Assembly: GCA_046593875.1 (NCBI GenBank)
Contig: JBKJQQ010000241.1
Location: 18,455-82,454, forward strand
DNA from: Mycobacteriales bacterium
GTDB taxonomy: Bacteria; Actinomycetota; Actinomycetes; Mycobacteriales; SCTD01
Length of the DNA stretch: 64,000 nt
Direction of reading: 5' to 3'
How positions within the stretch are numbered: the first letter of the stretch is position 1; each line of letters starts with the position of its first letter. Below the pieces are notes generated by a model that worked only from the letters and a program-made list of their open reading frames with translations, made no database searches and was not told the DNA's origin. This document shows, one piece after another, positions 7,036 to 51,436 of the stretch. The translations under genes and the position numbers were made by a program.

Positions 7036-7047
7036 TCTGCGCGCCCA

Positions 7048-7969: not shown

Positions 7970-7981
7970 GCGTCTCTTCGG

Positions 7982-10101: not shown

Positions 10102-10108
10102 CGCGTCT

Positions 10109-10126: not shown

Positions 10127-10164
10127 CTGCGGGGGGACGCCTCCGGCCCGGCAGTCGTCTGCCG

Positions 10165-10278: not shown

Positions 10279-10297
10279 ACGAGGAGCAGTCTAGCGG

Positions 10298-11404: not shown

Positions 11405-11486
11405 GGCGCGCCTCCTGGTGTTCGAGTGACTGATGTTGTACCGGTCCTCGGCGCGCTTGGGGGGCTGCCTGAGCAATCAGGACGAA

Positions 11487-11927
11487 CTACACGGTTGTGA
11501 CCTGCTCCTGCAGCGCCCGCACGCCGAGGGCGGTCGCCCCGGCGGCGACGACCACCAGCCCGAGGCCGGCCCCCTTGCTGACCCGGCCCTTGAGCAGGGC
11601 GCCGGTCACGGCGAGGGCGTCCACGCCGTCGGACAGCACCCCGCCGGCCAGCCACAGCCGGGAGGCTGCGCGGTCGGGGCTGCGCAGCGCGGCGAAGGTC
11701 CCCAGACCGAGCGCGATCTCCCGGGCGCCGAGCATCTGCACGGCCCAGCCCATCTTGGTGGCGCTCGCCGAGTCGACGCCGAGCGCCTGCGGGACCGCAC
11801 GCGGCCGGACGACCATCACCGTGCCGATGCCCGCGCGGCCCAGCGCGAGCTGCGTCGGCGTCGCCCGGTCGAGCACCGCCTGCAGTGCCGACCGGCGAGC
11901 GATCTGGGGGCGGGTGCGCAGCAGCAT
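11487..11927 (-). CDS. hypothetical membrane protein
   Basis: In-frame ATG at 11927 (MLLRTRPQIARR...) avoids overlapping rbpA. The protein has hydrophobic Gly/Ala-rich segments. I recognise no family. Confidence 0.35.
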   Translation of the reverse strand: MLLRTRPQIARRSALQAVLDRATPTQLALGRAGIGTVMVVRPRAVPQALGVDSASATKMGWAVQMLGAREIALGLGTFAALRSPDRAASRLWLAGGVLSDGVDALAVTGALLKGRVSKGAGLGLVVVAAGATALGVRALQEQVTTV

Positions 11928-36086: not shown

Positions 36087-36093
36087 CGGGTCG

Positions 36094-36103
36094 ACGTTAG
36101 CCT
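36094..36103. promoter_or_regulatory. overlapping back-to-back -10-like hexamers in the 23-bp pafB / DUF3866 intergenic region
   Basis: Plus strand: TAGCCT (36098..36103) is 6 nt before ATG 36110. Minus strand: TAACGT (36094..36099) is 7 nt before ATG 36086. Both fit TAnnnT, and the spacing implies leaderless mRNAs. Confidence 0.35.
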
Positions 36104-36109
36104 GCGGCC

Positions 36110-37150
36110 ATGATCAGGTGGCGCCGCGGCGAGGTCGTGTCGCTGGGTCGCTCGTGGTCCGGAGCGCAGGAGCTGGACGTGTCCGTCGAGGGCGCCGTCG
36201 TGCGGGCGCTGGCCCACCCGCCGCTGGTCGGCCAGCCGGAGGTCGGTGACGCCGTGCTGCTCAACGTCGGAGCGCTCGACCTGGGGCTCGGCACCGGCGG
36301 CTACGCCCTGGTCGTCGCCCTGCCCGACCGGCTGCCCCCCGACGTGGACGGCCCGGGCCACCTCGTGAAGGCCCGCTACACGCCCCTGCAGACCGTCGTG
36401 CTGGGCGCGGACGAGCAGGACTCCCCCACCCGCGCGCTCGTGGCCGACGACGTGCCGCTGCCCGGCACCCCGGTCGTCGTGGCCGACCTGCACTCGTCCT
36501 TGCCCGCAGTGCTGGCCGGCGTCCTGGCCGCCCGGCCCGGGACGCGGGTGGCGTACGTCATGACCGACGGCGGGGCGCTGCCGCTGTGGTTCAGCCGGAC
36601 CGTCGCCGCCCTGCGCGACCGGCTGGCGGGGACGGTCACCGTCGGACAGGCCTTCGGCGGCGACCTGGAGGCGGTCACCCTGCACAGCGGGCTGCTGGCG
36701 GCGGTGCGGGTCCAGGGGGCCGAGGTCGTGGTCGTCACGCAGGGACCGGGCAACCTCGGCACCGGGACGTCGTGGGGCTTCTCCGGTGTGGCGGCGGGCG
36801 AGGCCGTCAACGCTGCCGCGGCGGTCGGTGGACGGCCGGTGGCGGTGCTCAGGATGTCGCAGGCCGACCCCCGCCCCCGGCACCGCGGGGTGAGCCACCA
36901 CAGCACGACGGCGTACGGGAAGGTCGCCCTGGCGTCGGCCGACGTGGTGGTGCCGGTCTCGCAGGCGGCACTCGTCGACGCCACCGCCTTCCCCCGGCAC
37001 CGGCTCGTCCGGGTCGAGGACGCCGATCTGGTCGAGGTCCTGACGCCGTGGGCACCGCTGCTGTCGTCGATGGGTCGCGGGCTCGCTGACGACCCGTTGG
37101 CCTTCGTCGCCGCCGCGGCGGCGGGGCGGCACGCCGCGGGGCTGCTCTGA
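36110..37150 (+). CDS. DUF3866 family protein
   Basis: GHLVKARYTPLQT, VTQGPGNLGTGT and RHRGVSHHS, as I recall for DUF3866. Its biochemical function is unknown. Confidence 0.7.
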   Translation: MIRWRRGEVVSLGRSWSGAQELDVSVEGAVVRALAHPPLVGQPEVGDAVLLNVGALDLGLGTGGYALVVALPDRLPPDVDGPGHLVKARYTPLQTVVLGADEQDSPTRALVADDVPLPGTPVVVADLHSSLPAVLAGVLAARPGTRVAYVMTDGGALPLWFSRTVAALRDRLAGTVTVGQAFGGDLEAVTLHSGLLAAVRVQGAEVVVVTQGPGNLGTGTSWGFSGVAAGEAVNAAAAVGGRPVAVLRMSQADPRPRHRGVSHHSTTAYGKVALASADVVVPVSQAALVDATAFPRHRLVRVEDADLVEVLTPWAPLLSSMGRGLADDPLAFVAAAAAGRHAAGLL

Positions 37151-38631
37151 TGAGCCTCGGCGGCACGGCGGCCGCGTTGGAACGTCGGCTCGGCCTGTCC
37201 GTCTTCGCGGCCAACCTCGGCGGAGCGGTGGTCGTCTACGTCTTCCTCAGCTACCTGCTCGTCACCCCTGTCGACCTGCTCGACGGCGGCCGCCTGCAGC
37301 GGCTGAACAACGTCCTGTTCGTCGTCTACATGGCCTTCACCGCGGGAGGTGGCCACCTGCTGGGCCTGCGCCTGAACCGCCCGCTGCTCGAATGGCTGAC
37401 CAGCGGGCGGCCGGGAGACGCCGCCGCGCGCGCCGCCGTGCTGCGCGCCCCGCTCAGCATGTCGCTGATGAGCGGCGGGTTCTGGGCCGTCGCCGCGCTG
37501 GTGTTCGGCCTGGTCAACGGCGAGTTCCTGCTGCCCCTCGGCGTCCAGGTGGCGCTGACCATCGCGCTGGGCGGGCTCACCACCGTCTCGCTGACCTACC
37601 TGCTCGCCGAACGGGTGCTGCGGCCGGCCGTGACGCTCGCGCACGCTGGGAGCCCCGAGGCGCCCCCGGTGCTGCTCAGCGTGACCCGTCGGATGGTCGT
37701 GGCGTGGGCGGTCGGCAGCGGGGTGCCCCTGCTCGGGATCGCCCTCGGCGTCGTGGAGCTCATCGACGAGAGCCCGCTCAGCGATGCGGGTCTGCTGTTC
37801 CTGGTCGGCTGCGGGCTGGTCGCCGGTCTGCTCGCCACGGTGGCCGCGGCGCGGGCGGTCGCGGACCCGATCCAGTCCGTAGCCACAGCCCTGCGGGAGG
37901 TCGGCGAGGGACGGCTCGACACGTCTGTGCCGGTCTACGACGCGTCCGAGATCGGGCGCCTGCAAGCTGGTTTCAACGCCATGGTCGGCGGCCTGCGGGA
38001 GCGGGCCACCCTCCAGGACCTGTTCGGTCGGCAGGTCGGCGTCGACGTGGCGCGGCTGGCCGTGGAGCGCGGCGTGCGCCTCGGCGGCGAGCGGCGCGAG
38101 GTGGCGGTGCTCTACGTCGACGTCATCGGCTCGACCGCGCTGGCCGTCACGCACGACCCCGAGGAGGTCGTCCTCCAGCTCAACCAGTTCTTCGGCGTCG
38201 TCGTCGACGCGGTGGCCGCCGAGGGCGGCTGGGTCAACAAGTTCGAGGGCGACGCAGCGCTGTGCGTGTTCGGGGCGCCCGTGGAGCGGGCGGATGCCCG
38301 CGCCGGAGCCCTGGCCGCGGCCCGGGCCCTGGCCCGTGGGCTCGAGCCGCTCGTGCTCGAGGCCGCGATCGGCGTCTGCGCCGGCTGGGTCGTCGCGGGC
38401 AACGTCGGCACCGAGAGCCGCTTCGAGTACACCGTCATCGGCGACGCGGTCAACGCGGCGGCGCGGCTGGCCGAGCTGGCCCGGGAGCAGCCCGGCCACC
38501 TGCTGGCCGACGGCGACGTGGTGGAGCAGGCCGGCGCGGAGGCCGCGCACTGGGAGATCGGCCCGCCGGTCGTGCTGCGTGGGCGGGTCGCGCCCACCCG
38601 GCTGGCCCGGCCGTCTGCCCCTCCCGAGTAG
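37150..38631 (+). CDS. membrane-bound class III adenylate cyclase with a HAMP domain
   Basis: Multi-TM N terminus. HAMP region (PIQSVATALREVGEGRLDTSVPVYDASEIGRLQAGFNAMV). Cyclase domain (VAVLYVDVIGSTAL, KFEGDAALCVFGAP, TVIGDAVNAAARL). Confidence 0.85.
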   Translation: MSLGGTAAALERRLGLSVFAANLGGAVVVYVFLSYLLVTPVDLLDGGRLQRLNNVLFVVYMAFTAGGGHLLGLRLNRPLLEWLTSGRPGDAAARAAVLRAPLSMSLMSGGFWAVAALVFGLVNGEFLLPLGVQVALTIALGGLTTVSLTYLLAERVLRPAVTLAHAGSPEAPPVLLSVTRRMVVAWAVGSGVPLLGIALGVVELIDESPLSDAGLLFLVGCGLVAGLLATVAAARAVADPIQSVATALREVGEGRLDTSVPVYDASEIGRLQAGFNAMVGGLRERATLQDLFGRQVGVDVARLAVERGVRLGGERREVAVLYVDVIGSTALAVTHDPEEVVLQLNQFFGVVVDAVAAEGGWVNKFEGDAALCVFGAPVERADARAGALAAARALARGLEPLVLEAAIGVCAGWVVAGNVGTESRFEYTVIGDAVNAAARLAELAREQPGHLLADGDVVEQAGAEAAHWEIGPPVVLRGRVAPTRLARPSAPPE

Positions 38632-38652
38632 TCCGTTGGGACCATCTCTCGG

Positions 38653-40905
38653 GTGGTTCGCCCCTTCTTCCTGGCATCTGGCCCGTGGAACGCCCACTCT
38701 CACAGGGTGACCGACTCCGACCAGGTGTGGCTGGATGTCGCCGGCGGCGTCCTGGCGCACGTCCGGAGCGTCCTGGGCTTCGAGATGGCGGTGCTGTCGC
38801 GGCGCACCGGCGACGACTACGTGGTGCTCGCCGCCGAGGACGACTGCTACGGGGTGCGCGCCGGCGACGTCCTCCCCTGGGACGACACGTTCTGCGCCCG
38901 GATGGTCGACGGACGCGCGCCGTCGTTCGCCCCGGACGCGACCGTCGTCCCGGCCTACGTCGAGGCCGGCGAGCTGCTCGGCATGGACGTCGGCGCCTAC
39001 GTCTCGCTCCCGCTCGTCGGCGCGGACGGCGCCTTGCTCGGGACCCTGTGCGCCGCCAGCGCCCGGCCGCAGACCAGCGCCCTGCTCGCGCACGAGGACG
39101 TGCTGCGCGTGCTGTCCGGCACCGTGGGGGCGCTGCTGGACTCCGAGCTCAGGCTCCAGCGTGAGTCTCGACGGGCCGAGCGGGCGGAGGCCGTCGCGCA
39201 CGTCGACCCGCTGACGGGCTTGGGCAACCGCCGGCTGTGGGACCGGGCCCTGGCCTCCGAGGAGCGCCGCTGCGCGTCCTTCGGGCTGCCCGCGGGCCTG
39301 CTGGCCGTCGACGTCGACGGGCTCAAGGCGCACAACGACCTGGTCGGTCACGAGGCCGGCGACGCGCTGCTCCGGACGGTGGCGGCGGCGCTGCTCGCGG
39401 CCACCGGACCGGACGACGTGCTGGCCCGGACCGGGGGCGACGAGTTCGCGGTGCTGCTGCCCGAGAGCGACGCCGCGCGGGTCGGCGCGGTCGTGGCGGC
39501 CCTCCGCGAGGCGTTGGCCGAGCGGGGCGTGTCGGCCGGCATCGGCTCGGCGCAGCGCGGCCGCGAGGGCCTCGCCACCGCGTGGCGCGCCGCCGACGCC
39601 GCGCTGCTGCTGGACAAGCGCCGGGCGCGCGAGGTCCTGCGCCCAGCCTCGACGCCCGCACCGGTCCCGGACGCGTCGGTCGACGACGTGCTGCTGGAGG
39701 AGCTCCTCGTGCTGGCCCGCCGCCAGCTCGGCGCGGCCATCTCCTTCGTGGGCGAGTGGCGCGGCGGCCCGTCCGGCGTCCGGGTCATGCGCGGCGTGTC
39801 GGCCGACTTCCCCCTTCCGGTGGGTCGGGGGTCGACCGAGGCGCTCGACGGCACCTACTGCCAGCGCATCCTCGACGGCCGCCTCCCCCGGGTCATCCCG
39901 GACACCTCGCGCGAGCCCGAGGCGATGGCCCTGCCGATCACCTCCGCCCTGCCGATCGGCTCCTACGTCGGCGTCCCGGTCGTGCTGTCCGACGGACAGC
40001 TGTACGGGACGCTGTGCTGCCTGTCGCCGACACCGGACACCTCCCTGTCGGACCGGGATGCGGACTTCCTCGCCGCGATCGCCAGGAGCATGGCGCGGGT
40101 GCTCGAGGCCGAGCTGCGCGAGCGGGCCGTGCGCAGCGCCCTGGTGGCCCGCCTGGACCCGGTGGTGCGCGGGCGCGGCCTGTCGGTCGTCTACCAGCCG
40201 GTCATGCGCCTCGTCGACGGCGCCCTGGTCGGGCTCGAGGCACTGGCCCGTTTCGGCGTGGACGGCCACGGGGCGCCCGGTCCGTGGTTCGGCGACGCCG
40301 CCGCGGCCGGGCTCACCGGTGACCTCGAGATCGCGGCTGCGCGCGCCGCCCTGCTCGCCGCGCCGGCCCTGCCCGGCTTCCTGGCGCTCAACTTCTCCGC
40401 CACCACGATCCGCAGCCCGGCCTTCGCGACCCTGCTCGATGGGCACGACCCGCAGCGGCTGGTCGTCGAGGTCAGCGAGCACGAGGAGATCGAGGACTAC
40501 GCGGCGCTGGTGGACGCGCTCCGGCCGTGGCGGGCGGCGGGGCTGCGGGTCGCCGTGGACGACGCCGGCGCCGGCTTCGCCAGCCTGCGCCACGTCGTGC
40601 TGCTCGCCCCCGACCTCATCAAGCTCGACCTGTCGCTGGTCCGCGGCATCGACGGTGACCGCACCCGGCAGTCGCTGGCGATGGCGCTGACGACCTTCGC
40701 GCGCAGTGCCGGCGCCGAGGTCCTCGCCGAGGGCGTCGAGACCGAGGCCGAGCGCGACGTGCTCGCCGAGGCCGGCGTCACGCTCGTGCAGGGCTGGCTC
40801 TTCGGCGCCGGTCTGCCCGGGCCGCAGATCGCCGAGCGCTACGGACGTCGGACCAGCGGGCTGCCCGCTCCTCGGCTCGGCGGGGGCAGGGGCGTCAGGG
40901 CCTGA
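38653..40905 (+). CDS. GAF-GGDEF-GAF-EAL c-di-GMP turnover protein
   Basis: DPLTGLGNRR ... RTGGDEFAVLL (GGDEF domain). YQPV ... LEALARF, EVSEHE, DDAGAGFASL, IKLD, AEGVETE, QGW (EAL catalytic set). GAF-like segments precede each domain. GTG 38707 is an alternative start. Confidence 0.85.
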   Translation: MVRPFFLASGPWNAHSHRVTDSDQVWLDVAGGVLAHVRSVLGFEMAVLSRRTGDDYVVLAAEDDCYGVRAGDVLPWDDTFCARMVDGRAPSFAPDATVVPAYVEAGELLGMDVGAYVSLPLVGADGALLGTLCAASARPQTSALLAHEDVLRVLSGTVGALLDSELRLQRESRRAERAEAVAHVDPLTGLGNRRLWDRALASEERRCASFGLPAGLLAVDVDGLKAHNDLVGHEAGDALLRTVAAALLAATGPDDVLARTGGDEFAVLLPESDAARVGAVVAALREALAERGVSAGIGSAQRGREGLATAWRAADAALLLDKRRAREVLRPASTPAPVPDASVDDVLLEELLVLARRQLGAAISFVGEWRGGPSGVRVMRGVSADFPLPVGRGSTEALDGTYCQRILDGRLPRVIPDTSREPEAMALPITSALPIGSYVGVPVVLSDGQLYGTLCCLSPTPDTSLSDRDADFLAAIARSMARVLEAELRERAVRSALVARLDPVVRGRGLSVVYQPVMRLVDGALVGLEALARFGVDGHGAPGPWFGDAAAAGLTGDLEIAAARAALLAAPALPGFLALNFSATTIRSPAFATLLDGHDPQRLVVEVSEHEEIEDYAALVDALRPWRAAGLRVAVDDAGAGFASLRHVVLLAPDLIKLDLSLVRGIDGDRTRQSLAMALTTFARSAGAEVLAEGVETEAERDVLAEAGVTLVQGWLFGAGLPGPQIAERYGRRTSGLPAPRLGGGRGVRA

Positions 40906-41767
40906 CCGCGTCCCGCAGCGCGCCGGCCTGACTGCTGCGCAGGGACTTCGAGGCGTACATCCGCGCGTCCGCCTCCTCGAGGACCGAGCTCGGGTCCTCC
41001 CCGGGTTGGAGCAGGCTGGTCCCCACGGACACACCGACCACGACCACGACGCGTCCCGGCAGGATCATCGGCTGCCGCATCGCGTTGAGCACCCGGCGGG
41101 TCAGCCCCTCGGGGCTGGCCGCGGGGTCCGGTGGCGCGACGATGACGAACTCGTCGCCCCCGAGCCGGGCCACGAGGTCCTCGCCGCGAACGGCCAGCGT
41201 CAGTCGGCGTCCGACCTCGACGAGGACCGCATCGCCCGCGGCGTGGCCGTAGGTGTCGTTGACGGCCTTGAAGCCGTTGAGGTCGCAGAACAGCACCGAG
41301 GCGCCGCTGCCCGACAGCGTCGTCAGGACCTCGAGCAGCCGGGTGCGGTTGGGCAGCCCCGTCAGCTCGTCGGTCCGGGTACGGGCGAGCAGGTCCTCGG
41401 CCGCCGACCGCGCCAGGCTGACGTCGACGCCCACGCAGGCGAGCAGTGGGGGTGCGTCCTGGACCCGGGCGGTCGTCCAGGCCAAGGTGCGGCGCCCACC
41501 CTCGGAGCCGGGGGGCAGGTCGTGCTCGTGGGACTGCGCGACCCCGGTGCGCGCGACGCCGCGCAGGACGTGCAGCAGGTCCACGTGGTCGCGTGCCGCA
41601 GCCATGACCGGCGTCACGTCCCCGCCGACGACCCCCGGTCGCAGGCGCAGGCTCTGGTGCCCCGCGGGGTTGGCGTCGACCAGGCGGCCCGCGCCGTCGA
41701 CGAGCAGCACCACGGCGGCCGTCGCGTCGAGCAGGGACGGGGCCAGGGCGGACAGCGCGCTGGTCAC
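40895..41767 (-). CDS. PAS-GGDEF diguanylate cyclase (with an RxxD I-site)
   Basis: LLDATAAVVLLVDGAGRLVDANPAG (PAS-like), DELTGLPNR, RGEDLVARLGGDEFVIV. The GTG 41767 overlaps the upstream stop. Confidence 0.8.
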   Translation of the reverse strand: MTSALSALAPSLLDATAAVVLLVDGAGRLVDANPAGHQSLRLRPGVVGGDVTPVMAAARDHVDLLHVLRGVARTGVAQSHEHDLPPGSEGGRRTLAWTTARVQDAPPLLACVGVDVSLARSAAEDLLARTRTDELTGLPNRTRLLEVLTTLSGSGASVLFCDLNGFKAVNDTYGHAAGDAVLVEVGRRLTLAVRGEDLVARLGGDEFVIVAPPDPAASPEGLTRRVLNAMRQPMILPGRVVVVVGVSVGTSLLQPGEDPSSVLEEADARMYASKSLRSSQAGALRDAVRP

Positions 41768-42714
41768 GGCGCGCCGTCCTCGGCCACCGACACCCGGTTG
41801 CGTCCGGCCTCCTTTGCGGCGTAGAGCGCGCCGTCGGCCGAAGCCACCAGCCCGCGCAGGTCGCCGAGCTCGCCGACCGCCCCGCCCGCGCTCACCGTGA
41901 TGTCCAGCGTGCCGCCGGTGCCGACCGCGAGCGGGGTCACGTCGACGGCGGCGCGCAGGCGCTCGGCGAGGTCCACGACGGCGCTCCGGTCGCCGTCGGT
42001 GAGCAGGGCCACGAACTCCTCGCCGCCCCAGCGCACGAGGGTCTCGCCATCGCACGTCGCGCGGCGCATCCGGGCGGCGACGGTGGCGAGCACCGCGTCC
42101 CCGACGAGGTGGCCGTGCTCGTCGTTGACCTTCTTGAAGTGGTCGATGTCGACCATGACGACCCCGACCGGCAGACCGGCGCCGCGACCGGCGAGCAGTC
42201 CGTCGACGACCTGCTCCAGGTGGCGACGGTTCGGCAGTCCGGTCAGCGGGTCGGTGTTGCTCAGGGCATCGAGCTCGCGCGCCCGTCGCTGCAGCTCGTC
42301 GTGGCGCTGGGACAGGCGCATCGCGGTGCTCACTCGGGCGACGAGCTCGCTGCTCTCGCAGGGCTTTTTGAGGTAGTCGTGCGCGCCGAGGTCGAGGCCG
42401 CGCGCGACCTCACCGCCCGCGATGCGCGCCGTCAGGAACAGCACGGGCAGCCACCGCAGGTGCGGGTCCTCCTGCATGCGCTGCATCGTCGCCAGTCCGT
42501 CGAGCACGGGCATGTCCACGTCGAGCAGCACGAGGTCGGGTCGGTCCACCCGGCAGGACGTCAGCCCCTGCTCGCCGTCAGCGGCCTCGTTTACCCGGTA
42601 ACCGGCGGCCTCGAGGTCACGCCGGAGGATCCGCCGCACAGTGCTCGAGTCGTCGACGACGAGCACAGTCGCGACGCGCACGCGGTCCGGGCCGCGTCGC
42701 TCGTCGGCCGTCAC
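41764..42714 (-). CDS. response regulator-diguanylate cyclase (REC-GGDEF, WspR/PleD-like)
   Basis: VLVVDDSSTVRR, DLVLLDVDMPVLDG, LTAR (REC domain). DPLTGLPNRR ... RWGGEEFVALL (GGDEF domain). Confidence 0.9.
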   Translation of the reverse strand: MTADERRGPDRVRVATVLVVDDSSTVRRILRRDLEAAGYRVNEAADGEQGLTSCRVDRPDLVLLDVDMPVLDGLATMQRMQEDPHLRWLPVLFLTARIAGGEVARGLDLGAHDYLKKPCESSELVARVSTAMRLSQRHDELQRRARELDALSNTDPLTGLPNRRHLEQVVDGLLAGRGAGLPVGVVMVDIDHFKKVNDEHGHLVGDAVLATVAARMRRATCDGETLVRWGGEEFVALLTDGDRSAVVDLAERLRAAVDVTPLAVGTGGTLDITVSAGGAVGELGDLRGLVASADGALYAAKEAGRNRVSVAEDGAP

Positions 42715-43172
42715 GGGTCACCGTCGGCAGTCCTGCGGAGGACCGAGATGACCAGCGGCTGCTCCAGCGACAGGAACGTCGCCGTCGCCTCGACGTGGGT
42801 GCCCAGGACGCGCAGGGCGTAGTCGGCTCCGTGCGCGACGGTGGGCAGCGAGATGCGGGACGGCTCGGGGAGGAGCGCCTTGATGTTGCCCGCGAGCATG
42901 TTGGTCAGCTCGCCGACGGTGTCGTGCACCTCCTCGGGCGTGCAGGCGCCCTCAGGCCGGAACAGCTCGGCGGACAGCCGCTCGGCCAGCGACTGCGGGC
43001 ACTGCAGCATGACCGCGCCGTTCCACGCGCCATCGATCTGGATGCAGCCGGTCATGACCTGCGCGTCCCCCGCCAGCCCCACCCCGGCGGGGGCGAGGTC
43101 GAGGGGGAAGCTGAAGAGCGTCTCCCAGATGCTCTGCGCGATCTGCGCGATGTCCTGCTCTACCTCGGTCAC
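42711..43172 (-). CDS. cheX: CheX/CheC-family chemotaxis phosphatase
   Basis: The GTG 43172 overlaps the cheR stop. IAQSIWETLFSF ... GELTNMLAGNIK resembles the CheX E-x2-N region. Confidence 0.7.
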   Translation of the reverse strand: MTEVEQDIAQIAQSIWETLFSFPLDLAPAGVGLAGDAQVMTGCIQIDGAWNGAVMLQCPQSLAERLSAELFRPEGACTPEEVHDTVGELTNMLAGNIKALLPEPSRISLPTVAHGADYALRVLGTHVEATATFLSLEQPLVISVLRRTADGDP

Positions 43173-43987
43173 TGCTGCCCTCCTGCGGCCATCGGTCTGT
43201 ACATCGACGTGCGCCCCACCTGCAACCGCTCCCAGCCCTCGTCCAGTCCGTACGTCGTCTCCGCGCCGCCCAGCGAGAGCAGACCACCCGGCGCCAGGAC
43301 GCGGGCGACCTGGGTCAGGACGGCGCGCTTGGCCTCGGGTCCGAAGTAGATCAGGACGTTGCGCAGCAGCACGAGGTCCATCGGGGGAAGGCTCGGCCAC
43401 GGCTTGGCCAGGTTGAGCTGCCGGAACTCCACCCGGCGGCGCAGGTGCTCGCGCACCCGCCAACCGGCGCCGTCCCGCTCGAAGTGCTTGACGAGCAGGG
43501 CGGCCGGCAGCCCGCGGTTGACGTCCAGCTGCGTGAAGGTGCCGCGGGCGGCGCGGGCGAGGACGTCGCGTGACAGGTCGGTGGCCAGGATCGTGGCGTC
43601 GGCGGTCGGGAAGTGGTCGGCCAGCAGCATCGCCAGGCTGTACGCCTCCTGGCCGGTGGAGGACGCCGCCGACCACAGCCGGAGCCTTCCGCCGCGCCGG
43701 GCCAGGGCTGCCGGCAGGACGACGTCACGCAGCGCGTCGAAGGGGTGCACGTCGCGGAAGAACGAGGTCTCGTTGGTGGTCATGGCCTCGACCACGTCGT
43801 CGCGCAGCGCGGTCGATCCCTGTCGCAGCAGCGCGAGGAGCTCGGCTACGGACGACAGTCCCTCGCGTTCGGCGAGCGGGGCCAGCCGCGCCTCGACGAG
43901 GTACTCCTTGCCGTCGTTCAGCACCAGCGCACTGCGCTCCTGGACCAGGGAGCGGACGTACTGGAAGTCGCCGGCGGGCAGCGCCAC
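43169..43987 (-). CDS. cheR: chemotaxis protein methyltransferase CheR
   Basis: MTTNETSFFRD, LWSAASSTGQEAYSLAML, LLRNVLIYF. Confidence 0.9.
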   Translation of the reverse strand: MALPAGDFQYVRSLVQERSALVLNDGKEYLVEARLAPLAEREGLSSVAELLALLRQGSTALRDDVVEAMTTNETSFFRDVHPFDALRDVVLPAALARRGGRLRLWSAASSTGQEAYSLAMLLADHFPTADATILATDLSRDVLARAARGTFTQLDVNRGLPAALLVKHFERDGAGWRVREHLRRRVEFRQLNLAKPWPSLPPMDLVLLRNVLIYFGPEAKRAVLTQVARVLAPGGLLSLGGAETTYGLDEGWERLQVGRTSMYRPMAAGGQQ

Positions 43988-45034
43988 TCAGCGTCCCGCG
44001 GTGACGCGGTCGACTAGGCCGGCGCCCAGCGCCTCGATCGGCAGCGCGGCCTGCGCGAGCCCGGCCCGCACCACGCTGCTCGGCATGCTCCCGATGACGC
44101 AGCTCGCGGGGTCCTGCACCACCACCTGACCGCCTGCGGCGCGGACCGCCTGGCAGCCGATCAGTCCGTCCGATCCCATGCCGGTCATCACCACGCCGAG
44201 CACCCCCGCGCCGAAGACCGCAGCGGCGGAGCGGAACAGGACATCGGCTGCCGGCCGGCAGGAGTTCTCCGGCGGGCCGTCGCCGAGCGCGACCTGGACG
44301 ATCCCTCCGCTGCGGGCCAGCGCAAGGTGCCGACCGCCGGGGGCGAGGTAGACGTGACCGGGCCGCACCTGCTCTCCCTGGACCGCTTCGCCGACCGACA
44401 GCGGCGAACCGCGGTCGAGTCGCTCGGCCAGCAGCCGGGTGAAGACCGGCGGCATGTGCTGTACGACCAGCAGGGGCACCGGGAAGCTGGCGGGCAGTCC
44501 GGCGAGCAGGACGCTCAGCGCATCCGGGCCACCGGTCGAGATGCCGACGACGACGACCTGGAGCGGCGCACGGGGACCGGGCGCGGCGGCCGCGGGAACG
44601 AACGTGCTCAGCGCCTCGCGCGGTGCGGCGAGTCCCTTGACCAGCGGTGCCAGGTGCTCGACGACATAGGCCTCGGCCAGCTCGACCGAGGACGCGGTCG
44701 GCTTGAGGACGAAGTCGACGGCGCCGAGCGACAGGGCATCCAGGGTCGATGCCGCGCCACGCTCGTCCAGGCTGCTGAACAGGACGACGGGCAGGTCGGG
44801 GTGCGTGCGCCGGAGCTCGCTCAGCGTGCCGAAGCCGTCCAGCTCGGGCATCTCGAGGTCGAGCACGACGACGTCCGGGCGGGAGTGCCGGATCTTGTCG
44901 AGAGCCAGCCGGCCGTTGGCGGCGAAGTCGGTGCGGGCGATCGCCGGGTCCCGCTCGAGCGCCCGTGCGACGACGCGGCGCATGACCACGGAGTCGTCCA
45001 CGACCAGCACCCGCACCGGGGCGACGGGCGGCAC
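43988..45034 (-). CDS. cheB: protein-glutamate methylesterase CheB (REC plus esterase)
   Basis: VLVVDDSVVMRR, DVVVLDLEMPELDG, GISTGGPDAL, VVQHMP, TGMGSDG. Confidence 0.9.
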   Translation of the reverse strand: MPPVAPVRVLVVDDSVVMRRVVARALERDPAIARTDFAANGRLALDKIRHSRPDVVVLDLEMPELDGFGTLSELRRTHPDLPVVLFSSLDERGAASTLDALSLGAVDFVLKPTASSVELAEAYVVEHLAPLVKGLAAPREALSTFVPAAAAPGPRAPLQVVVVGISTGGPDALSVLLAGLPASFPVPLLVVQHMPPVFTRLLAERLDRGSPLSVGEAVQGEQVRPGHVYLAPGGRHLALARSGGIVQVALGDGPPENSCRPAADVLFRSAAAVFGAGVLGVVMTGMGSDGLIGCQAVRAAGGQVVVQDPASCVIGSMPSSVVRAGLAQAALPIEALGAGLVDRVTAGR

Positions 45035-45038
45035 GGTC

Positions 45039-45407
45039 CTAGACCTCGAAGCCGAGCAGGTGCAGCTTGTCGAGGACGGCCTCGCGGGTGAACGGCTTCA
45101 TTAGGTACTCGTCCGCGCCGGCGGTGAGGGCGTGCATCACCTGCGGGATCTCGGTCTCGGTCGTCACCATGACGACCTTCGCGGTGGACGAGTGCGGCGG
45201 TTGCCGGACGGCCTGCAGGAACTCGATGCCGGTCATCTCCGGCATGTTCCAGTCGAGCAGCACGAGCTCCGGGACGAGGCCTCCGGCAAGCAGGTCCAGC
45301 CCCTCGCGGCCGTTGCCTGCCTCCGCGACCTCGAAGCCGAGACCGCGCAGCATGCGTCCCAGGATCATGCGCATCGCCCGCGAGTCGTCGATCACCAGGG
45401 ACTGCAC
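45039..45407 (-). CDS. cheY: single-domain response regulator CheY
   Basis: LVIDDSRAMR, LVLLDWNMPEMTG, MVTTE, YLMKPF. Confidence 0.9.
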   Translation of the reverse strand: MQSLVIDDSRAMRMILGRMLRGLGFEVAEAGNGREGLDLLAGGLVPELVLLDWNMPEMTGIEFLQAVRQPPHSSTAKVVMVTTETEIPQVMHALTAGADEYLMKPFTREAVLDKLHLLGFEV

Positions 45408-45425
45408 GGGAGGGGCTCCTTCGAC

Positions 45426-45860
45426 TCAGGCGACGGTCAGGACGAGACGCGGATCCAGGACGAGCAGCAGCGCACCTGCACGCTGGTGCGCCGCGGTGCA
45501 CAACCTACGTATCTCATGGTCCACCGTCTCCGGAACGTCCTCACCCTCACCGTCAGCCACCTCGACCACGTCGCCCTCGCGGTCCACGACGAGGCTGATG
45601 TGCTCGTCGTCGAGCTCGACGATGACGTGCGCGACGTCGGTGTCGTGTTCGCGCGGGGGCATCCCCAGGCGCAGCCGGGCGTCCAGGACCGGCACGATCC
45701 GGCCGCGGAGGTTGAGCAGCCCGACCATGGCGCCCGGGGCCAGGGGCACCTCCGTCACGTGCTGGCCGCGCACGACCTCCACGACGTCGGCCACGGGCAG
45801 GGCCAGGTGGAGCCCGCCCACGGTGAAGGTGCAGAGCCGGTGCGCGAGGGCCGCGCTCAC
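45426..45860 (-). CDS. cheW: coupling protein CheW
   Basis: The GTG 45860 overlaps the cheA stop. LCTFTVGGLHLALPVADVVEV ... GLLNLRGRIVPVLD. Confidence 0.85.
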   Translation of the reverse strand: MSAALAHRLCTFTVGGLHLALPVADVVEVVRGQHVTEVPLAPGAMVGLLNLRGRIVPVLDARLRLGMPPREHDTDVAHVIVELDDEHISLVVDREGDVVEVADGEGEDVPETVDHEIRRLCTAAHQRAGALLLVLDPRLVLTVA

Positions 45861-47959
45861 CGCCGTGCCACCACCCCGGCGGAGGCTGCGAGCACGTCCA
45901 GGTCGAGCAGCTCGGCGACCCGCTCGTCGACGACGAGGCAGGCCTGCACCCCTGCCCTGCTGGCCGGCTGCGACGGGGTCTGCGGCTCGTCGACGACGTC
46001 GTCGATGGAGGCCACCACGAAACCCACCAGTCCCGAGGCGGTGTCGCACACCACCGTCGGCAGGCCGGCGAGCGCGGCCTCCGCGGTCGGTGCCCGGTCC
46101 ACCTGCCGACGCTCGGGCAGCAGGTCGGCGACCCGCGCGAGCGGCAGCAGCGCGTCGCCGTACTGCACGACCTCGAGCGTCCCGGTCCGCTCGACCCGAT
46201 CCGGGGCGAAGCTCTCCAGCCGCCGGACCGAGGACAGGCGGACGGCCATGCGGCCGCCGTCGGGGGCCGTGGTCAGGAGCAGGCCGCCGGCGCTGGTGGC
46301 ACCTCGTCCGACAACGCTGTCCTCGACCGGCGAGGCGACGATGCCGGCGGCGGAGGCGATCCCGGGGACGTCCAGGATCAGCGACGGCAGGCCGTCGCCG
46401 AGGACGGTGGTGCCGGCGTAGACCGGGATCCCGCGCAGCAGCCGAGGGACGGGCTTGACGACCGCGTCGGCAGCGTCGCCGACGTCGTCGACGAGCAGGC
46501 CGAAGTGGCGCCCGTCGGTCTCGACGAGCACCACGGCCAGCGAGCCGTCCTGCCGGCGGGCCGTCAGGCCGAGCCGCTCGGCGAGGTCGACCAGCGGCAG
46601 CAGCCGACCGCGCAGCCGCAGCAGCCGAGCGCCCTCGACGACGTCGACGCGCGCGGCGACCTCGTCGGCCTGCAGGACCGCGACCTCGAGCAGGTGCACC
46701 TGCGGCACCGCGTAGCGCTGGCCGTCGCACTGGACCACCAGCACCGGCATGATGGCCAGCGTCAGCGGGATGTTCAGCCGGAACAGCACCCCCTGGCCCT
46801 CCCTCGACAGCACCTCGACACTGCCGCCGACCTGCTCCAGCGAGGCGCGTACGACGTCCATGCCGACGCCGCGACCGGACGTGCTCGTCACTTCGTCGCG
46901 AGTGGACAGGCCGGCGTGGAACATCAGCTCCAGCGCCTCGGCGCGGGACATCGATGCGGCCTGCTCGGCCGTGCGGAGCCCGCCCGCCACGGCCTTCGCG
47001 AGCAGCCTTTCGGGGTCGACGCCACGGCCGTCGTCGGAGACCTCGACGTGCACGCGGCCGCCCTCGTGCGAGGCGGCGATGCGCAGCAGACCCGCGTCCG
47101 GCTTGCCCGCGGCCCGCCGCTCCTCGGGGGTCTCGATGCCGTGGTCGACGGCATTGCGGACCAGGTGCAGGAGCGGGTCACGAAGCGCCTCGTTGATGGC
47201 CTTGTCGACGCCGACGTGCTCTCCGCTGAGCTCGACGTCGACGCGCTTGCCGAGCGCCGTGGCCAGGTCGCGGGCGATGCGGTGGAACTTCCCGGTGACC
47301 GTCCCGACCGGCTGCAGTCGAGCGGTCATGACGTTGTCCTGCAGGTCGGCCGTCACCATGCGCAGGTCGCGGTAGGGGCCGGCCAGCGGACCGTCGTCGT
47401 CGAGTGCGGCGAGCGCGCCGATCCGGCTGCGGGCGAGCACCAGCTCGCCAACCAGGTCCATGAGCGTGTCCAGGACGCCCACGTCGACGCGCACCGAGGT
47501 CTCGGCGCCGCCGGGGACAGGCACCTCGAAGGTCTCCGGCGCCGGAGCGTCCTGCTGCGAGGCAGCAGCACCGTGCTCGGGCAGGTGGCTGCGCAGCTGC
47601 GCCGACAGCGCGTCGTGGCGGGCAGGGGGCTCGGCGGAGGTGCTCTCGATGACGCCGAGCACCTCGCGCACGGAGTCCACGAGCTGCAGCAGCGACGTCG
47701 TCGAGGCCGCGTCGAGCAGCACGTCCCCGGCGCGCAGCGCCCCGAGCAGGTCCTCACCCGCGTGCGCCAGCTCCTCGAGGCGCGGGAACCCGAGGAAGCC
47801 GCAGGTGCCCTTGAGCGTGTGGACCGCGCGGAACACCCGGGCCAGCAGCTCGGGGTCCTGCGGCCGGCTCTCGAGCCCGACCAGGTCGCGGTCGAGCTCG
47901 TCGAGGTTCTCCCTGCTCTCCTCCAGGAAGGCGAGCAGGATCTCCTCGTCCTCGGTCAC
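45857..47959 (-). CDS. cheA: chemotaxis histidine kinase CheA with a duplicated CheW-like C-terminal region
   Basis: Hpt domain (FRAVHTLKGTCGFLGF). Kinase boxes (HLVRNAVDHGIE, DDGRGVD, GRGVGMDVV). Two CheW-like segments (LVVQCDGQRYAVP... and LLLTTAPDGGRMAVRLSSV...). There is no receiver domain. Confidence 0.9.
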   Translation of the reverse strand: MTEDEEILLAFLEESRENLDELDRDLVGLESRPQDPELLARVFRAVHTLKGTCGFLGFPRLEELAHAGEDLLGALRAGDVLLDAASTTSLLQLVDSVREVLGVIESTSAEPPARHDALSAQLRSHLPEHGAAASQQDAPAPETFEVPVPGGAETSVRVDVGVLDTLMDLVGELVLARSRIGALAALDDDGPLAGPYRDLRMVTADLQDNVMTARLQPVGTVTGKFHRIARDLATALGKRVDVELSGEHVGVDKAINEALRDPLLHLVRNAVDHGIETPEERRAAGKPDAGLLRIAASHEGGRVHVEVSDDGRGVDPERLLAKAVAGGLRTAEQAASMSRAEALELMFHAGLSTRDEVTSTSGRGVGMDVVRASLEQVGGSVEVLSREGQGVLFRLNIPLTLAIMPVLVVQCDGQRYAVPQVHLLEVAVLQADEVAARVDVVEGARLLRLRGRLLPLVDLAERLGLTARRQDGSLAVVLVETDGRHFGLLVDDVGDAADAVVKPVPRLLRGIPVYAGTTVLGDGLPSLILDVPGIASAAGIVASPVEDSVVGRGATSAGGLLLTTAPDGGRMAVRLSSVRRLESFAPDRVERTGTLEVVQYGDALLPLARVADLLPERRQVDRAPTAEAALAGLPTVVCDTASGLVGFVVASIDDVVDEPQTPSQPASRAGVQACLVVDERVAELLDLDVLAASAGVVARR

Positions 47960-49605
47960 TGCCTCGCTGCCCCCGTCGTGGCGCCGCGCTGGGCGCCGAG
48001 GGTGAAGCGGCCGACCAGCCCGAGCAGCTCGGACGACAGGCGGGCGAGCTCCTCCGCCGCGCGATGGGCCTCGCTCGCCCCTTGGGTCGTGCCGCGCGCG
48101 GTCTCGGCGACGCCGGTGATGTTGCGGGCGATCTCGCTCGCACCGGTCGCCGCCTCGGTGACGCTGCGGCCGATCTCGTCCGTCGTGACGGCCTGCTCCT
48201 CGACCGCGGCGGCGATGACCGTCTGGATGTCGTTGATGCGCTGGATGATCTCGGTGATCTGCCCGATGGCCTCGACGGCGTTGCGGGTGTCCTCCTGGAT
48301 CGTCCCGATCTTGCGCCCGATCTCCTCGCTGGACGTGGCGGTCTTGCGTGCGAGGTCCTTCACCTCGCCGGCGACGACGGCGAAGCCCTTGCCGACCTCG
48401 CCGGCCCGCGCCGCCTCGATCGTCGCGTTGAGGGCGAGCAGGTTGGTCTGCTCGGCGATGGAGGTGATGACCTTGACGACCTCGCCGATCTCGACCGAGC
48501 TCGCCCCGAGGCGGAGCACCGTGATGTTGGCCTGCTCCGCGACCCGCACGGCCTGACCCGCCACCTGCGCGGCCTCTGTGGCGCTCTTGGCGATCTCGGC
48601 AATGCTCGCGCCGAGCTCCTCGGCGCCGGCCGACACCGTCTGCACGTTGTTCGACACCTGCTCGGCGGCCACGGAGACGGTGCCCGCCTGCACGGCCGTC
48701 TCCTCGGCAGCGGCGCTCATCTGCTGGCTCACCGCGCTGAGCTCCTCGGACGCCGAGCTGAGCGTCGCCGAGCTCCTGGCGATGCCGTCGACCGTGTCGC
48801 TCATCTGGTCGAGCGTCTCGTTCAGGGCGGCGCCCATCTGGCCCAGCTCGTCGTCGGAGGTGTCGCTCAGGCGGGTCCTGAGGTCGCCGCCCGCGACAGC
48901 CCGCAGGACCGACACGGTGCGGGCCAGTGGCCGGGTCAGCGAGCGCGTGATGAGCACGGCGAGGACTCCGGCCAGCAGCAGCGCGAGCAGCGAGACGACG
49001 ATCAGCGTGGTGCGGGTGCGGTTGGAGCTGGCCCGGGCCTCGGCGACCTCGCGCTCGGCGCGCTCCTGAACGCCCTCGGCCAGCAGGCCGGCGCCTTCGG
49101 CGATGCGCTCGTAGACCACCAGCTCCTCGCCCAGGACCAACGCGGTGGCGCTGTTGCGGGCGGCCGGCGTGCCCTGCGCGTACAGGCTGATGATCTGCTC
49201 GTCGATCGCCATGAAGCGGTCGAAGTCGGCGTTGATCCGACGGATGACGTCCCGGTCCCCGGCCAGCCGGTCATCGCTCTCGATGACGGCGAGCTCGTCG
49301 CGGAACGCCTCTGCGGACTCGAGGAAGCTGCGGCGATTGCTCCCCTCCTCGTCTGTGGCAGCACGAGCGGTGCGTACCGCGTCGAAGGCGTACGCGGTCT
49401 GCCACCCGTTGACGTCCGCCGCCCGGAACTTCAGCTGCAGCACCTCTTCGGTGATGCGCACGTCGGCCGACAGGCGCTCCCGCGACTGAGCCTCGGACCG
49501 CAGCCCCAGCATCGCTACCGCGACCACCGCCACGAGCAGCAGCACGACGCACCCGAAGGCCGCCGCCAGTCGTGTACCCATGCGCGCACTGCGCAGGCCA
49601 GCCAT
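47956..49605 (-). CDS. methyl-accepting chemotaxis protein (two TM segments, periplasmic sensor, HAMP)
   Basis: N-terminal TM segment, ~170-aa extracytoplasmic segment, second TM segment and a HAMP region. Highly conserved signalling tip EQTNLLALNATIEAARAGEVGKGFAVVAGEVKDLA. Confidence 0.9.
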   Translation of the reverse strand: MAGLRSARMGTRLAAAFGCVVLLLVAVVAVAMLGLRSEAQSRERLSADVRITEEVLQLKFRAADVNGWQTAYAFDAVRTARAATDEEGSNRRSFLESAEAFRDELAVIESDDRLAGDRDVIRRINADFDRFMAIDEQIISLYAQGTPAARNSATALVLGEELVVYERIAEGAGLLAEGVQERAEREVAEARASSNRTRTTLIVVSLLALLLAGVLAVLITRSLTRPLARTVSVLRAVAGGDLRTRLSDTSDDELGQMGAALNETLDQMSDTVDGIARSSATLSSASEELSAVSQQMSAAAEETAVQAGTVSVAAEQVSNNVQTVSAGAEELGASIAEIAKSATEAAQVAGQAVRVAEQANITVLRLGASSVEIGEVVKVITSIAEQTNLLALNATIEAARAGEVGKGFAVVAGEVKDLARKTATSSEEIGRKIGTIQEDTRNAVEAIGQITEIIQRINDIQTVIAAAVEEQAVTTDEIGRSVTEAATGASEIARNITGVAETARGTTQGASEAHRAAEELARLSSELLGLVGRFTLGAQRGATTGAARQ

Positions 49606-49692
49606 GTGCGGGTCCCCTCGTCACGATCACCTGCGCGGACCGTAACGTTCGTCGGCCCGCGCGGACGCGCGAACCGCCGCAGCGGGTGCTAG

Positions 49693-50064
49693 CTAGCGGA
49701 CCCCGAGCAGGTCGACCACGAACACGAGCGTCTCGCCGCCCTTGATGGTGCCACCGGCACCGCGGGCGCCGTACCCGAGCTCGGGCGGGATCGTCAGCCG
49801 GCGACGTCCGCCGACCTTCATCCCGGCCACGCCCTGGTCCCAGCCCCCGATGACCTGACCCTGGCCGAGCCCGAAGGTGAAGGGCTGGCCGCGGTCCCAC
49901 GAGGCGTCGAACTGCTGCTTGGTGGACCACGCCACGCCGACGTACTGCATCGTGCAGGTCGTGCCGGAGGTGGCCTCGGGGCCGTCGCCGACGGTGAGGT
50001 CCTCGAGCTGCAGCTCGGTCGGCGCAGGGCCGTCGGGGATCTGGACGTCAGGCTTCTCGGTCAT
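49693..50064 (-). CDS. FKBP-type peptidyl-prolyl cis-trans isomerase
   Basis: QYVGVAWSTKQQFDASWDRGQPFTFGLGQGQVIGGWDQGVAGMKVGGRRRLTIPPELGYG. Confidence 0.9.
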   Translation of the reverse strand: MTEKPDVQIPDGPAPTELQLEDLTVGDGPEATSGTTCTMQYVGVAWSTKQQFDASWDRGQPFTFGLGQGQVIGGWDQGVAGMKVGGRRRLTIPPELGYGARGAGGTIKGGETLVFVVDLLGVR

Positions 50065-50077: not shown

Positions 50078-51436
50078 TCACATGCTGGCGATGAGCTTCT
50101 CGACGCGGTCGTCGACGGCCCGGAAGGGGTCCTTGCACAGGACGGTGCGCTGGGCCTGGTCGTTCAGCTTCAGGTGCACCCAGTCGACGGTGAAGTCGCG
50201 CCGCTTCTCCTGCGCGCTCTTGATGAACTCCCCGCGCAGCCGCGCGCGCGTGGTCTGCGGCGGCAGCGTCTTGGCCTCGAAGACGGCCAGGTCGGTCGTC
50301 GCGCGCTCGACCGCGCCGGAGTTCTCGAGCAGGTAGTAGAGCCCGCGCCGGCGGTTGACGTCGTGGTAGGCGAGGTCGAGCTGCGCGATGCGCGGGCTGG
50401 ACAGCGGGAGGTCGTGCTTGAGCCGGTAGCGCTCGATGACCTGCAGCTTGGTCACCCAGTCGATCTCGCGGTCCACCAGGGACAGGTCACCGGTCTCGAC
50501 GGCCGTCAGCGTGCGGCCCCAGAGGTCGAGCACGCGCATCACGGTGGCGTCACCGCCGCGGCGGGCGATGAAGTCGGTGGCCTTGGAGTGGTACTCGCGC
50601 TGGATCTCCAGCGCGCTGGCCTCCCGGCCGTTGGCGAGCTTGACCTTGCGCCGACCGGTGATGTCGTGGCTGATCTCGCGGATCGCCCGGATCGGGTTCT
50701 CCAGCGTGAGGTCGCGCATGACGACGCCGGCCTCGATCATCCGCAGCACCAGGTCGGTCGCGCCGATCTTGAGCAGCGTCGTGCACTCGTTCATGTTGCT
50801 GTCGCCGACGATGACGTGCAGCCGACGGAAGCGCTCGGCGTCGGCGTGCGGCTCGTCGCGCGTGTTGATGATCGGGCGGCTACGGGTCGTCGCGCTGGAG
50901 ACGCCCTCCCAGATGTGCTCGGCGCGCTGGCTCACGCAGTAGACGGCGCCGCGCGGCGTCTGCAGGACCTTGCCGGCGCCGACGACGATCTGCCGGCTCA
51001 CGAGGAACGGGATGAGCACGTCGGCGAGCCGGCTGAACTCGCCCTGCCGTCCGACCAGGAAGTTCTCGTGACAGCCGTAGGAGTTGCCCGCGCTGTCGGT
51101 GTTGTTCTTGAACAGGTAGATGTCGCCCGCGATGCCCTCCTCGCGCAGGCGCCGCTCGGCGTCCATCAGCAGGCCTTCGAGGATCCGCTCGCCGGCCTTG
51201 TCGTGCGTGACGAGGTCGACGGCGCTGTCGCACTCCGGAGTGGCGTACTCCGGGTGCGAGCCGACGTCGAGGTAGAGCCGCGCGCCGTTGCGCAGGAAGA
51301 CGTTGCTGCTGCGGCCCCAGCTCACGACGCGGCGGAACAGGTAGCGGGCCACCTCGTCGGGCGAGAGCCGCCGTTGCCCGCGGAAGGTGCAGGTCACGCC
51401 GTACTCGTTCTCGATCCCGAAGATCCGACGCTCCAC
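50078..51436 (-). CDS. pafA: Pup-protein ligase PafA
   Basis: [35 protein letters not shown] and NSYGCHENF, in a 452-aa protein. Confidence 0.9.

Follow-up and report, generated by a model that had tools for sequence, protein, structure and literature searches.

Chemosensory control of the second messenger cyclic di-GMP (c-di-GMP) has been established experimentally mainly for the proteobacterial Wsp pathway, a system of the ACF class. Here, we describe a nine-gene chemosensory block in a 64,000-nt stretch of DNA from a Mycobacteriales bacterium (the window; positions 1-64000, G+C content 72-76%), the last two genes of which encode a receiver (REC) protein with a GGDEF domain, REC-GGDEF, and a PAS-domain protein with a GGDEF domain, PAS-GGDEF. 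Pathways with REC-GGDEF outputs are already known from Wsp and the ACF class, a multidomain response regulator in a che cluster is regarded as an ACF mark, and CheR with a TPR extension is typical of that class (PMC3447774); ACF systems pair with 40H receptors (PMC10746217). Actinomycetia, Acidimicrobiia and Nitriliruptoria have F5 as their flagellar class, which is marked in the Wuichet-Zhulin scheme by AW...BR gene order, 38H receptors and a CheA with an extra CheW domain (Zhu et al. 2023, PMC10746217). In the portion of Table S3 of that survey used here, CheX is present and CheC and CheD are absent in all actinobacterial F5 rows, and the accession numbers of CheB, CheR and CheX are consecutive in several species (PMC10746217). 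Hence, as far as these rows go, CheY and CheX belong to the standard actinobacterial flagellar-class toolkit.

We found that the nine genes, all on the minus strand at 40895-49605, run in the order MCP (methyl-accepting chemotaxis protein), CheA, CheW, CheY, CheB, CheR, CheX, REC-GGDEF and PAS-GGDEF (Table 1). The genes, their order and their positions agree with an earlier sequence-only reading of this DNA: all open reading frames (ORFs) were found in place, and every gene was assigned by Pfam and NCBIfam, well over curated cut-offs. Read base by base, the junctions MCP/cheA, cheA/cheW, cheR/cheX, cheX/REC-GGDEF and REC-GGDEF/PAS-GGDEF are GTGA stop/start overlaps; the other three junctions have gaps of 18 nt (cheW-cheY), 4 nt (cheY-cheB) and 0 nt (cheB-cheR), a layout that bears out the translational coupling proposed in that reading. 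The start codons at the overlaps are predicted ones, consistent with the gene calls in relatives. Catalytic and phospho-acceptor residues are intact in all block proteins, as judged from sequence motifs and alignments. The nine genes are one tightly coupled unit that is predicted to be read as a single transcript. We consider it rather probable, at about 60%, that the block is an F5-type chemosensory operon that has acquired a c-di-GMP module and has two outputs, CheY and a phosphorylation-activated diguanylate cyclase.

The receptor has two transmembrane segments by hydropathy (~aa 12-35 and 198-220), a periplasmic domain of ~160 aa that has no Pfam match, and visible EE/EEQ methylation-type motifs. 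Compared with Tsr, a 36H receptor of E. coli, each arm of its signaling hairpin has exactly 7 additional residues (AGGDL to tip, 165 versus 158; tip to C-terminal F, 131 versus 124), which gives a 38H length, a call made by length comparison and not with the Alexander-Zhulin hidden Markov model (HMM). CheA has the architecture Hpt(P1)-dimerisation-HATPase-CheW(P5)-second CheW-like domain, with the Hpt histidine in HTLKG; Pfam detected no P2 and no receiver (Response_reg) domain in it. The second CheW-like domain, at ~aa 568-693, scored 36.9 bits (E 3.4e-09) when the C-terminal 153 aa were scanned alone with Pfam, and it had been missed in the sequence-only reading. CheY has the canonical residues in an alignment with its E. 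coli counterpart (DD, D52 in DWNMP, T, Y101 and K104, with Y-x-x-KPF). The full adaptation set and the phosphatase named in the sequence-only reading are present: CheB has its catalytic Ser (GISTGG), His (VQHMPP) and Asp (GMGSDG) motifs, CheR has its domains and no TPR extension by Pfam, and the CheX active-site motif D84-x3-E88-x2-N91, which fits the D/S-x3-E-x2-N signature of the CheC/CheX/FliY family, is invariant in 7 orthologues.

Three F5 marks are therefore present in the block, namely the second CheW-like domain in CheA, the order A-W-Y-B-R-X and the 38H-length MCP. The composition agrees as well, with CheX in the block and no CheC or CheD found in the 64-kb window. The first seven genes match class F5 by these three hallmark features, used here in place of the MiST/Wuichet-Zhulin HMMs. 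Four Wsp/ACF features, a CheA-REC hybrid, two CheW, a CheR-TPR and a 40H receptor, were looked for and none is present, so we rejected membership of the Wsp family by descent or architecture. One ACF mark does occur, since the multidomain REC-GGDEF lies in the cluster, is coupled to cheX and is conserved in relatives. Hence, CheY and CheX appear to be inherited F5 parts. The sequence-only reading had called the pathway Wsp-like and had taken the combination of CheY, CheX and two GGDEF proteins as a departure from Wsp. The likeness holds in that chemosensory control of c-di-GMP is plausible and fails for descent and architecture, and the departure is real, although its CheY and CheX components are merely what F5 brings along.

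Compared with the F5 systems of Geodermatophilus obscurus, Acidothermus cellulolyticus, Nitriliruptor and Acidimicrobium, the block has the same extra CheW domain in CheA, A-W...B-R order and 38H length, and with actinobacterial F5 it shares the presence of CheX, the absence of CheC and CheD and a stand-alone CheY. It differs in that REC-GGDEF and PAS-GGDEF are coupled at its 3' end, with REC-GGDEF fused to CheX in one lineage, and in that no flagellar genes were seen nearby and its closest homologues all come from uncultured lineages; this comparison covers the class definition and Table S3, and leaves the downstream genes of cultured F5 clusters outside. With Pseudomonas Wsp (ACF; WspA-F and WspR), the block shares a methylation-adapting receptor-CheA array encoded with a REC-GGDEF regulator and, from the genes alone, likely the same logic of receptor, phosphorylated CheA (CheA-P) and active diguanylate cyclase. 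In contrast to Wsp, it has a CheA with a second CheW-like domain and no receiver (WspE is a hybrid CheA), one CheW (WspB and WspD in Wsp), a CheR that lacks the TPR (WspC in Wsp) and a 38H instead of a 40H receptor, and it has CheY, CheX and an extra PAS-GGDEF. The phylum also has ACF chemosensory systems, a non-flagellar class there; those in Actinoplanes spp. and Acidothermus have, in the same portion of Table S3, two CheW and no CheX and stand beside an F5 system in the same genome (PMC10746217), whereas the window block has F5 composition. Hence, Wsp-type architectures already have catalogue entries in the phylum, although uncharacterised ones.

REC-GGDEF is the protein on which the proposed second output depends. 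An alignment of 20 homologues shows no variation at D21, D22, D65, K117 and the GGEEF motif (G230-F234), and T95 is kept in at least 90% of them, in agreement with the sequence-only reading of this protein as an intact candidate phospho-acceptor. Hence, chemosensory control of c-di-GMP is plausible. The receiver helix alpha1 (DDSSTVRRIL) fits the pattern DDS-x-x-[MV]-R-[RMQ]-[IV], which is common to CheY and CheB of the window and to E. coli CheB; E. coli CheY is near-identical (DDFSTMRRIV), and the corresponding stretch of PleD domain D1 is DDIEANVRLL. A Che-type alpha1 gives a weak but consistent hint that CheA could be the phosphate donor. We found no RxxD inhibitory site (I-site) five residues upstream of GGEEF, where REC-GGDEF has C-D-G-E and where the region is variable and gapped among the 20 homologues. 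Hence, the enzyme is predicted not to be product-inhibited. Ahead of the receiver, an arginine-rich motif, (E/D)RRGxDRV, is conserved at the N-terminus (aa 2-11, window 42682-42711). This motif itself contains an RxxD-like string and is kept as the linker in a CheX-REC-GGDEF fusion described below.

Among solved structures, PleD was the best-scoring relative of REC-GGDEF, followed by DgcR and then WspR. DgcR (Leptospira biflexa, 6zxb/6zxc) and PleD (Caulobacter, 1w25) have the same REC-helical linker-GGDEF arrangement, and the match to DgcR is full-length and of near-equal length (query 17-308 versus chain 3-291). REC-GGDEF differs from both in its Che-type alpha1, its lack of an I-site and its N-terminal (E/D)RRGxDRV extension; compared with WspR, it lacks the RxxD I-site and is ~22 residues shorter over the aligned span, and it is no closer to WspR than to DgcR and closer to PleD than to WspR. 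To our knowledge, neither DgcR nor PleD has been reported as part of a che operon.

In PAS-GGDEF, the GGDEF motif and an RxxD I-site (R194-x-x-D197) are invariant in 5 orthologues, and Pfam found no receiver domain. Hence, PAS-GGDEF is likely a separately gated cyclase and not a second phospho-output. Its 3' end overlaps the convergent plus-strand gene at 38653-40905 by 11 nt.

The block recurs in related che loci (numbered L001 onwards; mostly metagenomic, with gene context read within 10-kb flanks). More than 120 homologues of REC-GGDEF reach at least 52% identity; nearly all are metagenomic proteins, and all six close homologues that were looked up lie in the same kind of cluster. For REC-GGDEF itself and for a 100% identical match, P0001, the look-ups gave no contig that encodes them. 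The order MCP-A-W-Y-B-R-X-REC-GGDEF is found in L001, L082, L083, L084, L086, L089/L090, L091-L094, L173 and L174. Counted over all sources, the block is present in more than 12 metagenomic loci, with REC-GGDEF 57-88% identical and in at least four genomic contexts (the paf locus, a tRNA-Ser/recR locus and others). CheY is the most conserved block protein and REC-GGDEF the second (93% and 88% to L082; 81% and 79% to L089). Searches from CheA led to L086, L173 and L174, which have the cyclase, and to L088, which lacks it; those from CheX led to L091-L094 with the cyclase and to L098 without it. The best 120 CheA homologues are only metagenome-assembled genome (MAG) or metagenomic entries, and at least 15 further REC-GGDEF and CheA matches share a longest contig of the same size, which suggests common contigs.

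The variants of the block concern mainly its 3' end. PAS-GGDEF follows REC-GGDEF in the window, L082, L083, L089/L090 and L091; in L173 it has moved to a divergent position upstream of MCP and is still linked. In L084, the cheX stop is lost and CheX and REC-GGDEF form one 463-aa protein (P0035), seen in four sequences from Logan and ENA. In L002, a Solirubrobacteraceae MAG, the order is MCP-CheA-CheW-CheB-CheR-REC-GGDEF followed by a double-GGDEF protein; this cluster has no CheY and no CheX, and REC-GGDEF is its only non-CheB receiver. L002 was the useful result of a scan of genome contigs with peptide patterns derived from REC-GGDEF, patterns that proved too general and gave, among the matches listed, distant PleD-like proteins (best 49%). 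In L089, a tRNA-Ser lies at 2839-2928 and the nine-gene block directly after it at 3057-11891. The different sites of the block in L089, L173 and L083 suggest that it relocates as a unit.

Other che loci were seen alongside these. L143 (6867-9458) has a distant che cluster, its CheX 48% identical over residues 13-110, that ends in CheX, a 214-aa receiver protein, a CheC-like protein and PAS-GGDEF. Hence, PAS-GGDEF genes have been added to che operons more than once. In L174, a REC-GGDEF-REC protein (6682-7950) stands directly before MCP, and a 1220-aa permease-HAMP-GAF-GGDEF-EAL protein (994-4656) and two GAF-ANTAR regulators lie upstream, a dense c-di-GMP neighbourhood. A second, larger cluster family (L097, L098 and L105-L170), mostly from peat and soil metagenomes, has a CheX of 30-41% identity and the order CheA-(REC)-CheW...MCP-CheY-CheB-CheR-CheX, often with CheY on the opposite strand after CheX; none of its members has a GGDEF gene next to CheX, and L156 has FliG upstream.

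The sequence-only reading had reported no flagellar or pilus genes in the window, and we likewise found none in the 64 kb with Pfam on GC3-supported ORFs and with tblastn using 12 E. coli flagellar proteins. Near the related loci, the only match to the E. coli flagellar queries was FliG of L156, which belongs to the other CheX clade and has no GGDEF gene.

The presumed promoter site of the operon is the intergenic region between the FKBP gene and MCP, where a scan for sigma-70 promoters and terminators gave nothing meaningful. A WhiG/FliA-type motif, T(A/C)AA-N16-GCCGAT, in the form of the consensus used in PMC12871210, lies upstream of MCP in the more distant relatives L001, L088 and L002, with 0.003-0.017 occurrences expected by chance per 200 nt. 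The window, L089 and L173 lack the strict motif ahead of MCP. The window does have GCCGACGAA upstream of MCP; since GCCGA is common in DNA of 73% G+C and no -35 element matches, we make no claim of sigma-28 control for its operon. WhiG homologues of Actinomycetota have non-flagellar regulons as well, and c-di-GMP enzymes are among their targets (PMC12871210).

Drawing on established Che and Rec-GGDEF biochemistry, we propose how an F5 operon with an acquired c-di-GMP module would work. The 38H transmembrane receptor, CheW and the two CheW-like domains of CheA would control CheA autophosphorylation, with methylation-based adaptation by CheR and CheB. Three receivers would take phosphate from CheA-P: CheB, the stand-alone CheY and REC-GGDEF. 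Phosphorylation would dimerise and activate REC-GGDEF, which would then make c-di-GMP free of product inhibition. CheY may carry a flagellar motor signal if the host has a motor, or may act as a competing phosphate sink. CheX would shorten the phosphorylation lifetimes of the receivers and, in the CheX-REC-GGDEF fusions, presumably acts on or beside the fused receiver. PAS-GGDEF, predicted to be co-translated, would be a second, product-inhibited cyclase gated by its own PAS domain and not by CheA. Since the block is retained in many uncultured relatives, second-messenger levels are probably also under the control of chemoreceptor signals.

Two rival accounts seem unlikely to us. In the one, the block serves ordinary flagellar chemotaxis in a flagellated host: CheY steers the motor, CheX is the phosphatase, and the GGDEF genes are co-transcribed passengers that receive no phosphate from CheA and may tune motility through global c-di-GMP. 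The presence of all F5 hallmarks, in the flagellar class of Actinomycetia and Acidimicrobiia, speaks for this account, as do the canonical, best conserved CheY and the sigma-28/WhiG-type motif in L001, L088 and L002. Geodermatophilus and Acidothermus are Frankiales in the NCBI taxonomy. Both have F5 in the portion of Table S3 used here, and the nearest named relatives of the window are Frankiales and Mycobacteriales MAGs. However, the conservation of REC-GGDEF is not that expected of a pure passenger: it is the second most conserved block protein, it is coupled to cheX and persists over a range of 57-88% identity in at least four contexts, one lineage has fused it to CheX, it is the sole output receiver in L002, and its alpha1 is Che-like. 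Flagellar genes, moreover, were seen near none of the close loci searched.

In the other account, which is no more probable, a host without flagella uses the F5-derived array only to set c-di-GMP, as a functional Wsp analogue in which CheY is a phosphate sink and CheX resets the cyclase. The lack of flagellar and pilus genes in the 64 kb, and of flagellar genes in the 10 kb around the close relatives' loci that were searched, fits a fully repurposed system, yet such an absence within 10-60 kb says little for a genome of several Mb. It also fits that the block moves between genomic sites together with its cyclases, that close homologues come only from uncultured soil lineages, that the cluster holds the multidomain response regulator regarded as an ACF mark, and that the Solirubrobacteraceae version has dropped CheY and CheX. 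Against this, nearly all versions retain CheX, and CheY shows the strongest constraint among the nine and still has the residues typical of motor-binding CheYs. The flagellar-type sigma-28/WhiG promoter motif of some relatives points the same way, yet WhiG homologues also drive non-flagellar regulons (PMC12871210).

Several points weigh against an F5 operon with both outputs. Phosphotransfer to REC-GGDEF is read from genomic linkage only, and class F5 rests on three hallmarks and not on the MiST/Wuichet-Zhulin HMMs. Related cores that have no GGDEF gene exist (L088, L098), which makes the cyclase an add-on that the core can do without. Neither the window nor the 10-kb surroundings of any close relative yielded a flagellar gene, by E. 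coli-query tblastn of limited sensitivity, which leaves a motor role of CheY without support here. We identified no c-di-GMP receptor near the block, and the 87 nt that separate the FKBP gene from the operon contain no recognisable promoter.

A more elaborate form of the two-output operon is tentative, somewhat less doubtful than either rival account and well short of probable. Here, the F5 array would drive a fast CheY signal and a feedback-free, phospho-gated cyclase at once, so that position in a chemical gradient is turned into c-di-GMP pulses whose lifetime is set by CheX (in cis in the fusions), a Wsp-like function evolved independently from a flagellar class. The c-di-GMP could feed the RsiG-WhiG sigma switch of Actinomycetota; with some relatives apparently transcribed from WhiG-type promoters, this would close a loop of chemosensing, c-di-GMP and motility or development.

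Upstream of the block are the FKBP isomerase gene and pafA, and a DUF3866 gene, a HAMP nucleotide cyclase gene and a GAF-GGDEF-GAF-EAL gene converge on the operon; past these plus-strand genes come a WYL/WCX gene (pafB/pafC type), tatC and a helY-type DEAD/DSHCT helicase gene. The DUF3866 and HAMP cyclase genes stand between the che block and pafB/pafC both in the window (36101-38631) and in L082 (6689-9219). The GAF-GGDEF-GAF-EAL gene is absent from the otherwise syntenic L082. Hence, it is apparently a strain-specific third c-di-GMP enzyme at the locus. In actinobacteria, pafA/FKBP and the pafBC-type genes are usually adjacent. In the window, pafA/FKBP and the WYL (pafBC-type) genes are separated by a stretch of ~13.5 kb (36101-49605), which, judged against that usual adjacency, resembles an insertion into a conserved locus of actinobacteria.

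The other GC3-supported ORFs scanned across 1-64000 belong to metabolic or housekeeping families or have no Pfam match. A 1552-aa minus-strand ORF at 36376-41034 was discarded as spurious, being the antisense of three plus-strand genes by composition and plus-strand Pfam matches. An Rfam scan of the window gave no match, so no riboswitch or rRNA. ARAGORN called a 93-nt tRNA-Trp at 35674-35766 (plus strand), inside the minus-strand WYL/WCX gene at 35130-36113; this is probably a false positive, since Rfam found no tRNA there. The nearest PafA homologues, at 91-95% identity, are from uncultured Frankiales, Mycobacteriales and Actinomycetota MAGs and from no cultured genus, and the homologues of CheA, PafA and REC-GGDEF carry Mycobacteriales, Frankiales, Acidimicrobiia and Actinomycetota MAG labels. 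The host is an uncultured actinomycete, probably a soil organism.

Table 1. Features of the window, and REC-GGDEF identity and promoter-type motifs in related loci
Feature	Coordinates	Strand	Length	Remarks
pafA	50078-51436	-		Upstream of block
FKBP isomerase	49693-50064	-		Upstream of block
Intergenic region	49606-49692	-	87 nt	Between FKBP gene and MCP start; presumed promoter site
MCP	47956-49605	-	549 aa	Pfam HAMP and MCPsignal
CheA	45857-47959	-	700 aa	Pfam Hpt, H-kinase_dim, HATPase_c, CheW (two stretches)
CheW	45426-45860	-	144 aa	Pfam CheW, 91 bits; GTGA overlap with cheA
CheY (stand-alone)	45039-45407	-	122 aa	Pfam and NCBIfam CheY
CheB	43988-45034	-		Pfam REC and CheB_methylest (206 bits); NCBIfam CheB above cut-off (354.7 bits)
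CheR	43169-43987	-	272 aa	Pfam CheR_N and CheR only
CheX	42711-43172	-	153 aa	Pfam CheX, 72 bits
REC-GGDEF	41764-42714	-	316 aa	Pfam; phospho-acceptor D65, GGEEF
PAS-GGDEF	40895-41767	-	290 aa	Pfam PAS_4 and GGDEF
GAF-GGDEF-GAF-EAL	38653-40905	+	750 aa	GGDEF at aa 261, EAL at aa 529, EGVE at aa 693
HAMP nucleotide (adenylate/guanylate) cyclase	37150-38631	+		Converges on operon
DUF3866	36101-37150	+		Converges on operon
L082				REC-GGDEF 88%; same layout including PAS-GGDEF; same paf/tat/helY context
L089/L090				REC-GGDEF 79%; all nine genes; beside tRNA-Ser and recR/ask locus
L083				REC-GGDEF 63%
L084				REC-GGDEF 59%; CheX-REC-GGDEF fusion
L001				REC-GGDEF 57%
WhiG/FliA-type motif (TCAA-N16-GCCGAT), L001	2527-2551			More distant relative
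WhiG/FliA-type motif (TCAA-N16-GCCGAT), L088	7838-7863			More distant relative; also CTCA-N17
WhiG/FliA-type motif (TCAA-N16-GCCGAT), L002	3634-3658			More distant relative

In the literature, we found no F5-type operon described with CheY, CheX, REC-GGDEF and PAS-GGDEF, in Actinobacteria or elsewhere; the most relevant recent surveys (PMC10746217, PMC12871210) make no mention of such an operon, and our searches, like the sequence-only reading, turned up no characterised actinobacterial equivalent. The unusual features are the paired REC-GGDEF and PAS-GGDEF genes that close the operon and the output wiring; the backbone is ordinary, and nothing about the block is categorically new. The block combines a Wsp-type output with a different evolutionary chassis, an F5 flagellar-class operon typical of Actinomycetia and Acidimicrobiia, and many uncultured Actinomycetota from soil retain this combination as a mobile block. 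The function of such arrays is not to be read from F-class labels alone. Signaling by c-di-GMP in Actinomycetota has so far been studied only in the non-motile Streptomyces and Mycobacterium (PMC10746217). If CheA phosphorylates the cyclase, the natural variants (core only, core with cyclase, CheX-cyclase fusion, and cyclase without CheY and CheX) would offer a ready dissection of the pathway, flagellar-class arrays could be rewired or dual-wired to a second-messenger output, and c-di-GMP signaling in Actinomycetota would gain a concrete sensory input.

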